This document shows, in pieces, positions 1 through 8,279 of a stretch of DNA of 39,971 nucleotides; positions within the stretch are counted from its first letter, which is position 1; every line of letters starts with the position of its first letter. Origin of the DNA: a virus (taxonomy: Duplodnaviria; Heunggongvirae; Uroviricota; Caudoviricetes); the IMG/VR virus record IMGVR_UViG_2718218131_000005; one strand, 5' to 3'. Below the pieces are notes generated by a model that was not told the origin of the DNA, did not search any database, and saw nothing but the letters and a program-made list of their open reading frames with translations. The position numbers were made by a program, and so were the translations under genes.

Positions 1-504
1 TTATTGATAGTGTTTTATGTTCAGATAATGCCCGATGACTTTGTCATGCAGCTCCACCGATTTTGAGAACGACAGCGACTTCCGTCCCAGCCGTGCCAGG
101 TGCTGCCTCAGATTCAGGTTATGCCGCTCAATTCGCTGCGTATATCGCTTGCTGATTACGTGCAGCTTTCCCTTCAGGCGGGATTCATACAGCGGCCAGC
201 CATCCGTCATCCATATCACCACGTCAAAGGGTGACAGCAGGCTCATAAGACGCCCCAGCGTCGCCATAGTGCGTTCACCGAATACGTGCGCAACAACCGT
301 CTTCCGGAGACTGTCATACGCGTAAAACAGCCAGCGCTGGCGCGATTTAGCCCCGACATAGCCCCACTGTTCGTCCATTTCCGCGCAGACGATGACGTCA
401 CTGCCCGGCTGTATGCGCGAGGTTACCGACTGCGGCCTGAGTTTTTTAAGTGACGTAAAATCGTGTTGAGGCCAACGCCCATAATGCGGGCAGTTGCCCG
501 GCAT
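1..504 (-). CDS. insB: IS1 InsB (transposase C-terminal part, normally expressed as InsAB' by -1 frameshift)
   Basis: 167 aa [67 protein letters not shown]...; overlaps insA in the -1 frame. Confidence 0.9.
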
Positions 505-698
505 CCAACGCCATTCATGGCCATATCAATGATTTTCTGGTGCGTACCGGGTTGAGAAGCGGTGTAAGTGAACTGCAGTTGCCATGTTTTACGGCAGTGA
601 GAGCAGAGATAGCGCTGATGTCCGGCGGTGCTTTTGCCGTTACGCACCACCCCGTCAGTAGCTGAACAGGAGGGACAGCTGATAGAAACAGAAGCCAC
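423..698 (-). CDS. insA: IS1 InsA (transposition regulator / N-terminal part of InsAB' transposase)
   Basis: 91 aa [42 protein letters not shown]... matches IS1 InsA as I recall it. Confidence 0.9.
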
Positions 699-753
699 TG
701 GAGCACCTCAAAAACACCATCATACACTAAATCAGTAAGTTGGCAGCATCACC

Positions 754-839
754 GTGATTTTGGCTATTTCTGATGTTCCTTCCGGGGCGGAGTTGTTTGA
801 AATAACGGTTGAGGTATTTCCCTGAATTGTGACAGACAT
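754..839 (-). pseudogene. flxA: 5' fragment of a flxA-like gene, truncated by the IS1 insertion
   Basis: ATG at 839-837 preceded by an AAAGGAGAAATCT ribosome-binding site; encodes MSVTIQGNTSTVISNNSAPEGTSEIAKIT then runs into the IS1 end at 753. Identification as FlxA is from memory of the Qin prophage protein. Confidence 0.4.
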
Positions 840-1041
840 AGATTTCTCCTTTTAAAAAAGCACTATCGGCATGCACAAAAAAATCTTTAATCGTATTTCT
901 TGTGTCATTAATTGTTTGATGTTCAGATTGTTTTCCTAGCGGGCTGGCGCGCCTCAGAAAGTAAAGCTTGTTGACAGGGGTAAACGTTCGGCAATAATTT
1001 TCTGCCGCATGCGGGTGTTGCATAAAACGTGCTACGTTCCT

Positions 1042-1347
1042 TTATCGACAGGTCAGGTCACCGCTCACCCGCCGACGAGAAAGCAACACTGACATGCTAA
1101 AGCAAAAAATAGATGAATAAGTTGAGTTGTGCATATGTAGCCTGACCGTCACAAAGTATATGGTGTCTGTACCAGTAAGATGATGGCCGGACTCTTTAAA
1201 AATGAGCTGACCTGCACAATACAGGATGGACTTAGCAATGGCTGCTCCTGGCACAAAGCGGACAGTGATCACCGTTCTTACGACTACTTTCTGACTTCCT
1301 TCGTGACTTGCCCTAAGCATGTTGTAGTGCGATACTTGTAATGACAT
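1042..1347 (-). CDS. ydfV: Hypothetical protein, ydfV-like (divergent from relB)
   Basis: 101 aa ORF in the position and orientation ydfV occupies next to relB in E. coli K-12 Qin; same length as YdfV. Sequence identity not verified. Confidence 0.4.
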   Translation of the reverse strand: MSLQVSHYNMLRASHEGSQKVVVRTVITVRFVPGAAIAKSILYCAGQLIFKESGHHLTGTDTIYFVTVRLHMHNSTYSSIFCFSMSVLLSRRRVSGDLTCR

Positions 1348-1371
1348 TTGTAATTACAAGAGGTGTAAGAC
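1310..1371 (+). promoter_or_regulatory. relBE promoter/operator region containing the relO inverted repeat
   Basis: Perfect inverted repeat CTTGTAAT-N10-ATTACAAG at 1335-1360, immediately upstream of the relB ATG at 1372. Confidence 0.6.
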
Positions 1372-1611
1372 ATGGGTAGCATTAACCTGCGTATTGACGA
1401 TGAACTTAAAGCGCGTTCTTACGCCGCGCTTGAAAAAATGGGTGTAACTCCTTCTGAAGCGCTTCGTCTCATGCTCGAGTATATCGCTGACAATGAACGC
1501 TTGCCGTTCAAACAGACACTCCTGAGTGATGAAGATGCTGAACTTGTGGAGATAGTGAAAGAACGGCTTCGTAATCCTAAGCCAGTACGTGTGACGCTGG
1601 ATGAACTCTGA
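1372..1611 (+). CDS. relB: RelB antitoxin
   Basis: 79 aa MGSINLRIDDELKARSYAALEKMGVTPSEALRLMLEYIADNERLPFKQTLLSDEDAELVEIVKERLRNPKPVRVTLDEL, near-identical to E. coli K-12 RelB as recalled. Confidence 0.95.
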   Translation: MGSINLRIDDELKARSYAALEKMGVTPSEALRLMLEYIADNERLPFKQTLLSDEDAELVEIVKERLRNPKPVRVTLDEL

Positions 1612-1898
1612 TGGCGTATTTTCTGGATTTTGACGAGCGGGCACTAAAGGAATGGCGAAAGCTGGGCTCGACGGTACGTGAACAGTTGAAAAAGAAGCTG
1701 GTTGAAGTACTTGAGTCACCCCGGATTGAAGCAAACAAGCTCCGTGGTATGCCTGATTGTTACAAGATTAAGCTCCGGTCTTCAGGCTATCGCCTTGTAT
1801 ACCAGGTTATAGACGAGAAAGTTGTCGTTTTCGTGATTTCTGTTGGGAAAAGAGAACGCTCGGAAGTATATAGCGAGGCGGTCAAACGCATTCTCTGA
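1611..1898 (+). CDS. relE: RelE mRNA interferase toxin
   Basis: 95 aa MAYFLDFDERALKEWRKLGSTVREQLKKKLVEVLESPRIEANKLRGMPDCYKIKLRSSGYRLVYQVIDEKVVVFVISVGKRERSEVYSEAVKRIL; start overlaps relB stop (TGATG). Confidence 0.95.
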   Translation: MAYFLDFDERALKEWRKLGSTVREQLKKKLVEVLESPRIEANKLRGMPDCYKIKLRSSGYRLVYQVIDEKVVVFVISVGKRERSEVYSEAVKRIL

Positions 1899-1969
1899 AC
1901 CAAAGCATGACATCTCTGTTTCGCACCGAAGGTGACACTTCTGCTTTGCGTTGACAGGAGAAGCAGGCT

Positions 1970-2125
1970 ATGAAGCAGCAAAAGGCGATGTTAGTCGCAC
2001 TGATTGTCATCTGTTTAACCGTCATAGTGACGGCACTGGTAACGAGGAAAGACCTCTGCGAGGTGCGAATCCGAACCGGTCAGACGGAGGTCGCTGTCTT
2101 CACAGCTTACGAACCTGAGGAGTAA
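1970..2125 (+). CDS. hokD: Hok-family small membrane toxin (HokD/RelF-like), 51 aa
   Basis: Not in the ORF track (under 60 aa). Translates to MKQQKAMLVALIVICLTVIVTALVTRKDLCEVRIRTGQTEVAVFTAYEPEE, a typical Hok protein with one transmembrane segment. Confidence 0.9.
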   Translation: MKQQKAMLVALIVICLTVIVTALVTRKDLCEVRIRTGQTEVAVFTAYEPEE

Positions 2126-2134
2126 GAGTGACTA

Positions 2135-2156
2135 GGCGAGGGAGAAATCCCTCGCC
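2135..2156 (+). other. Stable stem-loop at the 3' end of the hokD transcript (9 bp perfect stem, GAAA loop), no U-tract
   Basis: GGCGAGGGA-GAAA-TCCCTCGCC directly after the hokD stop; hok-family mRNAs carry 3' stabilising structures. Confidence 0.4.
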
Positions 2157-2593
2157 GCCTCTGATGTGTCAGGCATTCTCAACGCACCCACACTTAACCT
2201 GATTCGGCGAGTTTATTTTATCTGTGAATATTTTTATAAAAATAATGCCCATACACAGCAAAAAACAAAAAGTATTACAGATAAAAAAGGAGCGTAATGT
2301 GCAGATTTGTTGTTTTCCATATTTACTCACCTTAATATGATTAATCCTGATAGGATTGTTATTTCAGCGGTTTTCAAATGAGATATTATGGTGATCTGAC
2401 AAATTTGCATAACATTAAAATTTAATTTGTTTAACCGCTTTTAATAATAAGCGTTGTTTGTATCCCAGCAATCTGTTGTTTGGTTTTTATTCCATTAAGG
2501 TGGGGGCTTTACACTGGAACCAGTTTATTTATACTTTATACGTCAGCCTGAACAACTGGCATCTGCTGCACTGCGCCATCGAGAGATTGAGAA

Positions 2594-5131
<2,538 letters not shown>

Positions 5132-5133
5132 AC

Positions 5134-6021
5134 TCAGGCTGCCAGATCATCGTTTCTGATGGAAGCATAATAAGCTTTTTCTGCTTCTGCCGGAGGGATA
5201 TGACCCAGCCTTCCCAGCAATCGTCGATTGTTATACCAGTCCACCCACGTGAGTGTGGCCAGTTCCACTTCTGCACGGTTTTTCCAGCTCTTACGGTGTA
5301 TTACCTCCGCTTTGTAAAGACCATTGATGCTCTCCGCCATCGCGTTGTCATACGAGTCACCTGTACTCCCTGTTGATGCCAGTAATCCGGCTTCTTTTAG
5401 TCGCTCCGTATAGGCCAGTGATACATACTGAGAACCTTTATCACTGTGATGGACTGTGCCGGACGGCCGACGGGCCCACAACGCCTGCTCCAGTGCATCC
5501 AGCACGAATGTTGTTTCCATGGATGATGAGACCTGCCATCCCACGATGTATCCGGCGAACACATCAATGATGAACGCCACATAAACGAAGCCCTGCCATG
5601 TGCTTACCCAGGTAAAATCAGCCACCCACAACTGGTCTGGACGTTCTGCCACGAACTGACGGTTTACGCGGTCGCATGCGGCAACGGCTTTCCGGCTGAC
5701 GGTAGTGCGGACCTTTTTACCCCGGAGAACACCGGCAAGTCCCATAACTGCCATGAGGCGCGCCACTGTACATCTGGCCACTCTGATACCTTCCCGTAAC
5801 AACTGACGCCAGACTTTACGCACACCGTATACCTGGTGATTTTCATCGTATACGCGCTGTATCTCTTTCTTCAGCCAGTCATCGTGCTGCGCACGGGCAC
5901 TGCGTTTATCCGGATGATGTCGCTGTTGCTGACAGTGGTAATACGTTGACGGGGCAATATGCAGTTCACTGCATACCGGTCCGACCCCGTACTGCTCACG
6001 CAGCTTATCCAGCAGCGGCAT
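5134..6021 (-). CDS. IS3-family transposase OrfB (DDE catalytic part; normally made as an OrfAB fusion by -1 frameshift)
   Basis: 295 aa with an integrase-core DDE region; -1 frame relative to orfA, overlapping the A-rich end of orfA. Confidence 0.85.
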   Translation of the reverse strand: MPLLDKLREQYGVGPVCSELHIAPSTYYHCQQQRHHPDKRSARAQHDDWLKKEIQRVYDENHQVYGVRKVWRQLLREGIRVARCTVARLMAVMGLAGVLRGKKVRTTVSRKAVAACDRVNRQFVAERPDQLWVADFTWVSTWQGFVYVAFIIDVFAGYIVGWQVSSSMETTFVLDALEQALWARRPSGTVHHSDKGSQYVSLAYTERLKEAGLLASTGSTGDSYDNAMAESINGLYKAEVIHRKSWKNRAEVELATLTWVDWYNNRRLLGRLGHIPPAEAEKAYYASIRNDDLAA

Positions 6022-6347
6022 TATTTTTTCCAGAGGCGGTCGAACTCCGCCTTCGCAAAATAAGCGGAAGCCTGGCGAAGGATATCGTTACTGCGGCGCA
6101 GTTCACGATTTTCACGTTCCAGCTCTTTCAGACGCTGACGTTCAGCGGTGGTGAGTCCACCATCACCACTCCCGGTATCCCGCTCATGCTGACGAACCCA
6201 CACACGCAGAGTCTCTGGTGTACAGCCAATCTTTGGGGCAATGGAACAAATTGCCGCCCATTGTGAGTCATATTCGCCCTGACTTTCCAGAACCATACGA
6301 ACTGCCCGTTGACGGACCTCGGGGGAAAAACGTGTATTTTTAGTCAT
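6021..6347 (-). CDS. IS3-family transposase OrfA (helix-turn-helix / leucine zipper part)
   Basis: 108 aa [57 protein letters not shown]..., matching IS629-group OrfA as recalled. Confidence 0.85.
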
Positions 6348-7747: not shown

Positions 7748-8279
7748 GGGCTGGTTTATTGTATGCCAAATGATTATTAAAAAGGTTGTGTTAATAACAA
7801 AATCCGAAATAATATGCCTGCATATTTTTATCTTGCTTATATTCTGCATATTGTGCATAGCAGGCTCATCCCTGCAATCAAAACTGTATGATGAGTATTT
7901 TTTGTTTTCCTTTTTTCCAGTCATCTGATGATGACCTGCTTCTTTTTAATCCGGATCGACATCAGTTTTTTAAGATAATTCCTGCGAGTTATATGCATAA
8001 ATACCACAAACTCCGCATTTTATGTGGTTGGGAGTTGCCGGGCGCGCAGTGAGTTTGCTAAGAAAACTCCTGCATGGTGAATCCCCCTGTGCGGTGGGGT
8101 GATACCATTAACCTTTTCTGTCGCCGACAGGTATCACGAACATTTTGTTCACCGGGAGGCACCCGGCACCATGCACTTCAATAGATTCTCTCCACATTAT
8201 GGATATTCTTTCAGAATATCCCACGCAGACTTTGTGTAAATGTTAACAAATGTGCGTTTTATTTGATCTGATTCGCTGT

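Follow-up and report, generated by a model that had tools for sequence, protein, structure and literature searches.

The cluster examined here is made up of the antitoxin gene relB, the toxin gene relE, and the Hok-family toxin gene hokD (relF), which follow one another near the left end of a 39,971-nt stretch of Caudoviricetes DNA (IMG/VR record IMGVR_UViG_2718218131_000005). The whole of this stretch is called the window. The cluster is preceded by the open reading frame (ORF) ydfV, a fragment of flxA, and the insertion sequence (IS) IS1. The features are listed in Table 1. E. coli PK8241 (NZ_CP080139.1), which shows 5 mismatches to the window over 39,971 nt, served as the reference genome for the parts outside the window.

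The cluster itself is the known relBEF operon of K-12, which lies in the cryptic prophage Qin, also with flxA and ydfV upstream. The alignment with K-12 (strain MG1655 for relBE) showed that relBE, the operator, the spacer, and the relE-hokD junction are identical, and the identity covers window positions 1204-1993. The preliminary description of this locus took all three genes to be intact, which is borne out: relB and relE, overlapping by 1 nt, are 100% identical to K-12 at the nucleotide level, and HokD agrees with K-12 HokD at 50/51 residues (substitution I9V; one of the five nucleotide differences is non-synonymous). The relO inverted repeat, also described as preserved, was recovered by a repeat search in the same form as in K-12, within a stretch without differences. 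Binding of RelBE at the rel promoter was shown in K-12 (10.1101/239335). By analogy with the K-12 work on identical proteins, RelE would cleave mRNA in a ribosome-dependent manner and be neutralised by RelB.

Table 1. Features at the left end of the window (positions of the window; a dot marks features without strand).
Feature	Position	Strand	Remarks
IS1 (IS1A-type)	1-753	-	InsA/InsB ORFs; annotation of PK8241
One copy of the 9-bp IS1 target duplication, GTGATTTTG	754-762	.	Same 9-mer at the other IS1 end, PK8241 locus L001 5278-5286
flxA 5' fragment, codons 1-29, unit passenger DNA	754-839	-	Residues 1-29 identical to K-12 and EA13 FlxA
Right part of the proposed transposition unit (unit positions 2099-3301)	754-1956	+	99.75% identical to the unit on an Enterobacter IncFII plasmid
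ydfV ORF, 101 aa	1042-1347	-	No Pfam match; spans passenger DNA and conserved end module
Conserved right-end module: relBE promoter/operator, relB, relE, subterminal repeat, right terminal inverted repeat (IRR)	~1244-1956	+	Last ~715 bp of the unit
relO-type palindrome (RelB2-RelE operator)	1335-1360	.	Arms 1335-1346 and 1349-1360, 12 nt, 92% complementary
relB antitoxin, 79 aa	1372-1611	+	0 nt differences vs K-12; Pfam RelB, 112 bits
relE toxin, 95 aa	1611-1898	+	0 nt differences vs K-12; Pfam ParE_toxin, 51 bits
Subterminal repeat, right end	1906-1931	+	15/26 match to 1931-1956, offset 25 nt
IRR, GGTGACACTTCTGCTTTGCGTTGACA	1931-1956	+	19/26 to the reverse complement of the left terminal inverted repeat (IRL); ends 5'-TGT...ACA-3'
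15-bp target-site duplication, GGAGAAGCAGGCTAT	1957-1971	+	hokD Shine-Dalgarno sequence (SD) and AT of ATG
hokD (relF), Hok-family toxin ORF, 51 aa	1970-2125	+	Pfam HOK_GEF, 83.6 bits
TACG motif at the hokD Tyr47 codon, reported TadA adenosine-to-inosine (Tyr to Cys) editing site	2108-2111	+	Conserved
fbi-like 3' element of hok mRNA, TCTCAACGCACCC	2177-2189	+	5' tac partner absent
Degraded remnant of the hok terminator hairpin	2196-2213	+	Free energy -0.4 kcal/mol vs -11.8 in K-12

As described before, 71 nt (1899-1969) separate the relE stop codon from the hokD ATG, with no mok/sok control region between them. The Rfam search (E<=1, permissive filters) found no Sok-like RNA in window 1-4000, the promoter scan found no sigma-70-like promoter on either strand from relB to 2300, and the terminator scan found no terminator between relE and hokD. 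In three relatives without relBE (E41, a B strain, and O157 86-24), the sok model RF01794 matched over its full length directly upstream of the hok ATG (104-115 bits); the promoter of the intact locus (TGGAGA-16-TAGAAT) lies just 5' of this leader. Homology of the window to these intact prophage hok loci begins at position 1956, 14 nt 5' of the hokD ATG.

Comparison of the sequences makes it very probable that window positions 754-1956 belong to a transposition unit of the ISEsa1 family (IS1202 family), 3301 bp long, of which they form the rightmost 1203 bp, and that the missing control region does not result from a deletion. The unit is laid out as IRL, transposase gene, flxA, ydfV, relB, relE, and IRR. 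None of 300 shuffles of the unit reached even 18/26 for the match of the terminal repeats, and a target duplication adjoins IRR in every complete copy. The inverted repeat is repeated subterminally at the left end (offset 24, 17/26) as well as at the right, which is a feature of the IS1202 family (PMC10132070). The transposase is encoded outside the window by a 446-aa ORF with HTH_28/29/32 and rve_3 domains, annotated as ISEsa1-family; its gene is broken in PK8241 by an IS3-family element. BLAST mapping recovered the unit in three pieces in PK8241 (unit positions 1-1309, 1307-2108, and 2099-3301, split by the IS3-family element and IS1), as a whole with one IS3-family insertion in EA13, and complete and uninterrupted in the phage PhiR42_1. 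A further intact copy of 3.3 kb is at NZ_CP055884.1 80148-83448. K-12 has unit positions 1231-3301 only, the left 1230 bp and the sok leader being lost. The K-12 ydfW/ydfX region by flxA (formerly intK; K-12 locus L003 7226-7360) is a C-terminal remnant of the transposase (aa 386-430, 97.8% identical).

A second exact copy of GGAGAAGCAGGCTAT adjoins IRL in PK8241, EA13, and PhiR42_1, and intact hok/sok loci contain a single copy of this 15-mer. Different duplications were found at other sites: GGAGAAGAAGGCCAT at two different plasmid hok loci, AGATGTTAGCCATG in Kluyvera, GGAGATGTATGGGTCC in a metagenome contig, and GGATTCACGACGGAT / GGATTCACAGCGGAT at a non-hok site. There are at least five such site-specific duplications, 13-16 bp long, each matching within its own site only. 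The plasmid junctions read leader...GGCAA GGAGAAGAAGGCCAT / TGTTAACACC...(unit)...GCGTTGACA / GGAGAAGAAGGCCAT GAAACTG; the three E. coli junctions have the same structure, with GGAGAAGCAGGCTAT on both sides. When the PK8241 flanks were joined with one 15-mer, the reconstructed empty site aligned to an intact hok/sok locus as a single 433-nt high-scoring segment pair with 93.5% identity.

The control region of hokD is found on the other side of the unit. The Rfam sok/mok leader lies directly upstream of IRL in PK8241, EA13, and PhiR42_1 (103-111 bits). In PK8241 it occupies L001 1697-1868 (103 bits), 5.4 kb upstream of the hokD ATG and ~3.4 kb before window base 1. The upstream copy of the duplication keeps the leader and has lost the start codon (ATG to ATT), and in the plasmid copy the mok frame runs into IRL and stops there at a TAA. 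The SD and ATG of hokD are retained in the downstream copy. The 71-nt spacer consists entirely of transposon end and target duplication. The preliminary description attributed the missing control region to lack of room. This cause is not upheld: no sok/mok region would adjoin hokD because the transposon was inserted between the leader and hokD, and the separated leader is still present 5.4 kb upstream in the parent-type genome.

Copies of the unit occur in other genera and at other hok genes. On IncFII plasmids of Enterobacter, Klebsiella, and Citrobacter, the flxA-ydfV-relB-relE block and the spacer are 99.6-99.7% identical to the window up to position 1974, past which a different hok gene follows. 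Upstream of the block, these plasmids carry the ISEsa1-family transposase gene, and then their own truncated mok (DUF5431) and sok leader. A scan for the left end, with one genome per species, found 16 loci in Enterobacter, Klebsiella, Kluyvera, Citrobacter, Pseudocitrobacter, Pantoea, Huaxiibacter, Superficieibacter, Buttiauxella, and Shigella. The hok SD/ATG regions account for 8 of the 11 distinct left flanks (one inverted), and an Rfam sok match abuts IRL in six loci. Every locus that reaches the right end has the same IRR just past relE, and next to it a second copy of the left flank of that locus; the units are 2575, 3301, 4487, and 6093 bp long. In a scan of metagenomes, the right end was found at 84 loci, among which there are 27 distinct right flanks. 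Among the distinct small ORFs starting <=25 nt past IRR, 16/17 are Hok-like, all in the orientation of relE; they fall into at least three types (HokD-like, R1-Hok-like, and MKMPNQP-type), and all six that were checked against Pfam matched HOK_GEF. About 8 of the 27 distinct right flanks are unrelated to hok. Among 5426 complete E. coli genomes, the relBE-hokD junction was found in 1163 and the leader-IRL junction in 783.

In two metagenome contigs (L093 and L101), the right end and its duplication are followed directly by another left end, which corresponds to two units inserted in tandem at one hok site; the duplication therefore regenerates a usable target. In five further contigs (L029, L027, L034, L076, and L078), the hok SD (GGAG) is followed by TGTATGGGTCCACCACATATTGC... 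and foreign DNA in place of the hok ORF. These flanks keep the hok SD, which suggests that the choice of target depends on the leader/SD side. The TGTATGGGTCCACCACATATTGC flank could belong to the end of a different TGT-ended element that inserted at this hok position.

The units of 2575, 3301, 4487, and 4600 bp have only two parts in common: the right-end module with relBE (92-99% identity), and a left module from position 1 to ~1610-1631. The middle is variable. It contains flxA and ydfV in the E. coli units; a cytochrome b561 gene and a CDF cation-efflux gene in others, some copies also with an IS110-family element; LysR and two YdcZ-type exporter genes in others; or the gene for an unknown 333-aa protein. 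A cer-like Xer site (GGTGCGCGTAA-TGAGGCG-TTATGGTAAAT) lies outside the window at unit positions ~1430-1585 (L010 5580-5733), just before the point where the passenger DNA begins to vary. This site and ~150 bp upstream of it are 74-77% identical to many small ColE1-type plasmids. Xer-mediated exchange of the passengers is conceivable.

The following course of events is proposed. The target of the unit would have been the translation-initiation region of a hok/sok locus in the nin region of a lambdoid prophage; the insertion, in a fixed orientation, duplicated 15 bp. The hokD ORF keeps its own SD and start codon, and is severed from its promoter, tac/ucb, the mok start, the Sok target, and the Sok gene; in the parent-type genome, these elements are intact across the unit, outside the window. 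relBE reads outward across the terminator-free IRR. In K-12, on identical sequence, hokD is transcribed solely as the third cistron of a relBEF mRNA autoregulated by RelB/RelE. Transcription from the hok promoter and leader may now run into the transposase gene. The insertions of IS1 into flxA and of the IS3-family element into the transposase gene are later, simple events. Read-through from the relBE promoter, which the preliminary description had proposed for hokD, agrees with northern blots and a promoter deletion made in K-12 on identical sequence: relB, relE, and relF/hokD are co-transcribed, deletion of PrelBE abolishes the induced transcript, and the relF portion builds up after toxin induction (PMC3598666). 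Translation of HokD from the tricistronic mRNA is probably low, because the coupling to mok is gone. The copy of the unit in the window is probably immobile now, because its transposase gene is interrupted and flxA carries IS1. The mobility of the unit as a whole is inferred from the independent insertions.

Taken together, it is fairly likely that relBE is the constant right-end module of a mis-delimited IS1202-family (ISEsa1-type) transposon, which would home in one orientation to the SD/start region of hok genes on prophages and plasmids; each insertion would uncouple Hok from Sok/Mok and make a relB-relE-hok operon. The relBE pair would then be primarily the addiction or stability module of the element itself. 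Several points weigh against the proposed transposition unit. The left half of the unit, the second copy of the duplication, and the sok leader are outside the window and were taken from a genome that differs at 5/39,971 positions. Transposition is deduced from sequences, not from experiment. ISfinder, as cited in PMC10132070, defines ISEsa1 as a 1609-bp element with inverted repeats of its own (15/22), and the homology between variants ends near 1606-1631, which is compatible with a shorter autonomous IS. About 8/27 distinct right flanks and 3/11 left flanks are not hok, so that targeting is strong, not absolute, or rearrangements are frequent. The length of the duplication also ranges from 13 to 16 bp among the sites.

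Three other explanations were weighed. The genes relB, relE, and hokD could form a toxin-antitoxin unit that is kept by selection, with hokD as a functional effector controlled by RelBE; it would stabilise the prophage or abort phage infection. The hokD ORF, its SD, and the TadA editing motif are conserved, with only one of five nucleotide changes from K-12 being non-synonymous; the relF part accumulates upon toxin induction (PMC3598666); an intact relative, hokW-sokW, acts in phage release (PMC8621323); and the frequency of the relE-hok junction in E. coli genomes (1163/5426) points in the same direction. However, the arrangement is the direct mechanical product of insertion, and therefore no selection is needed to explain it. 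Moreover, the K-12 Hok loci including hokD were reported to be inactive, and the hok terminator is degraded in the window allele. Such a selected unit is considered unlikely, and relBE is probably read more economically as the module of the element than as a prophage stabiliser or an abortive infection system.

It is less likely still that ISEsa1 is a 1.6-kb IS and that relBE is neighbouring DNA, an accidental cargo mobilised in the manner of ISEcp1 through a surrogate right end. The 1609-bp length given in PMC10132070, the end of the homology at ~1606-1631 among the variants and many plasmid copies, and the match of just 19/26 between IRR and IRL would fit such a cargo. But near position 1609 the best candidate for a right end reaches at most 10/22, no 26-mer with >=17/26 occurs there in any locus, and no duplication was found around the 1609-bp version (PMC10132070). 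The relBE-IRR module is the same (92-99%) with four sets of passengers, for which a single accidental capture is a poor explanation, and the subterminal repeat of the family is present at the right end too. A fusion of relE and hokD by deletion or illegitimate recombination in the prophage, with the repeated 15-mer as a coincidence, is hardly credible: K-12 alone would look like it, with a truncated hok locus beside relBE and no sok within 12 kb, and reviews speak of inactivation by rearrangement (PMC2654758, PMC12214031), but the at least five sites have different duplications matching only within each site, the inverted-repeat ends lie exactly at the junctions, the intact loci are a colinear empty site, and the unit also precedes unrelated hok genes on plasmids of other genera.

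The proposed transposon resembles known systems in part. The 2023 survey of the family (PMC10132070) gives ISEsa1 as 1609 bp with 15/22 inverted repeats, and without a detectable duplication or a target; this length may stem from the boundary of variant homology at ~1606-1631. The unit shares with ISEsa1 and the long-duplication branch of the IS1202 family the transposase with N-terminal HTH and rve core (439/446 aa), the TGT/ACA ends, and the internal repeats of the inverted repeats, and with the ISTde1 subgroup a duplication of ~15 bp. It differs from the listed ISEsa1 in its length of 2.6-7.7 kb, in carrying passengers and relBE, and in having 13-16 bp duplications, mostly at hok starts. 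A related preprint describes a subgroup with 15-17 bp duplications, and passenger genes in some family members, the ISEsa1-type unit not being among them. The ISAjo2/ISAba32 group, which targets dif/pdif within the IS1202 family, is also specific for site and orientation, recognises a short conserved sequence on mainly mobile DNA, and requires no accessory targeting proteins. In contrast to the unit, these elements make 5-bp duplications at Xer sites and are ~1.5 kb long (ISAba71; ISAba32, 1482 bp); passenger genes occur in some relatives, but a toxin-antitoxin module has not been reported for them.

Tn3-family transposons with an integrated type II toxin-antitoxin module are said to have been described by Lima-Mendez et al. 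in mBio in 2020. There too, a type II pair is a constant part of the transposon and not variable cargo, although the transposase family and the position of the module are different. They are not known to target another toxin gene. The plasmid R1 hok/sok locus and hokW-sokW of Sakai prophage 5 share with the window locus the Hok ORF, its SD, a 3' fbi-like element, and the downstream hairpin (degraded in the window), and the lambdoid nin position; the cis promoter, tac/ucb, the mok start, the Sok target, and the Sok gene are missing at the window hokD, whereas the intact relatives have them all. Compared with K-12 relBEF, the window allele has another hokD 3' part, a degraded terminator, and IS1 in flxA; it is followed by DUF1367, YbcO, and Q-like genes of a Rac/DLP12-like prophage, whereas rem, ydfU, and ydfT follow in K-12.

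It was reported that hokD was inactivated by a (major) rearrangement that took away its canonical components (PMC12214031, PMC2654758). The present data would show how the relBEF operon and this 'rearranged' hokD arose, and they identify the K-12 intK/ydfW-ydfX pseudogene region as a transposase remnant. True ends, a duplication length, and a target would also be defined for an IS that was listed without duplication or target; if the element was mis-delimited, these would not have been found for this reason. A transposon with its own type II toxin-antitoxin pair would repeatedly disarm and rewire type I toxin loci on plasmids and prophages, which bears on the spread and interaction of toxin-antitoxin systems. 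In annotation, relBE-hok 'operons' and truncated Mok/DUF5431 ORFs on IncF plasmids might be treated as insertion products. If this is true, no IS with a type I toxin gene as its target was known before; its insertions would leave the promoter and leader of hok directed at the transposase gene. In the searchable literature, whose coverage is incomplete, nothing was found that links ISEsa1/ISNCY with hok, or relBE with flxA and a transposase. The transposon explanation is thus, provisionally, regarded as not previously described.

The allele of hokD differs from that of K-12 in its 3' part. There are 3 differences in 754-1993 and 20 in 1994-2215; this drop in identity suggests that the 3' part belongs to another allele than that of K-12, with an identical junction. 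Either a recombination event within hokD or an insertion into a different prophage allele would account for this break. In the minimum free energy folds of the intact relatives, the fbi-equivalent bases form a duplex with mRNA nucleotides 1-12 (tac); in the window allele, the fbi-like bases pair elsewhere. The terminator scan detected the hok terminator in the intact loci and missed it in the window allele. With this hairpin destroyed, transcription of relBEF probably continues in the direction of the DUF1367 gene; a terminator-like site comes next at 2436-2453. Editing of hokD in K-12 was reported (PMC5630033, PMC12214031).

Two candidates for a control element in the spacer were dropped. The fold of 1899-1990 is no stabler than shuffles (z = 0.08), and the perfect TTGACA at the end of IRR (1951-1956) has no -10 hexamer at 16-18 nt, as read from the sequence. 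No convincing CRP-S site for the reported Sxy induction of hokD was seen on inspection by eye.

The IS1 in flxA was described as having removed most of that gene. The assignment of 754-839 to flxA proved correct, but the gene is interrupted, not largely removed, because its other 261 bp persist across IS1 in PK8241. The window starts 15 nt inside the far end of the 768-bp IS1, whose inverted repeat lies at 731-753 and which ends in ...GGCAGCATCACC at 742-753. With GTGATTTTG at both ends, this is a simple insertion, later than that of the transposition unit. Full-length FlxA matches Pfam PF14282.

Whether ydfV is a real gene is doubtful, because the ORF straddles the boundary at which the passenger DNA meets the conserved end module, and other variants of the unit share no more than its first 20-39 codons. 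An IRR-like 26-mer with 17/26 to the left end lies at 1212-1237, exactly at the boundary between the passengers and the relBE module. Five percent of shuffles score as high, and this repeat may be a chance match or the remains of a former right end. On the plus strand, the flxA-ydfV spacer contains a strong promoter-like site at 971-998 (TTGACA, 16 nt, AATAAT; 11/12), which is directed toward relB and antisense to ydfV. The residual relE/relF transcript of the PrelBE deletion strain (PMC3598666) could be connected with this site.

According to the PK8241 annotation, the prophage is a Rac/DLP12-like mosaic lambdoid prophage. The genes 3' of hokD are those for DUF1367 (YbcN-like), IS100, an IS3-family element, and YbcO-like and DUF1133/Q-like proteins; beyond the Q-like gene are lysis genes, trkG, and a complete set of head and tail genes. 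The order of the DUF1367, YbcO-like, DUF1133/Q-like, and lysis genes supports the earlier placement of the cluster in the nin region. IS100 (IS21 family, istA/istB) and the IS3-family element stand back to back at 3315-6347, between the DUF1367 and YbcO-like genes. In PK8241, IS elements replace the prophage early region to the left of the transposition unit. Further downstream, between the Q-like gene and a tolA-like fragment, the Rfam model of the small RNA STnc100 matches window 8042-8228 on the plus strand with 86.6 bits (PK8241 L001 13343-13529).

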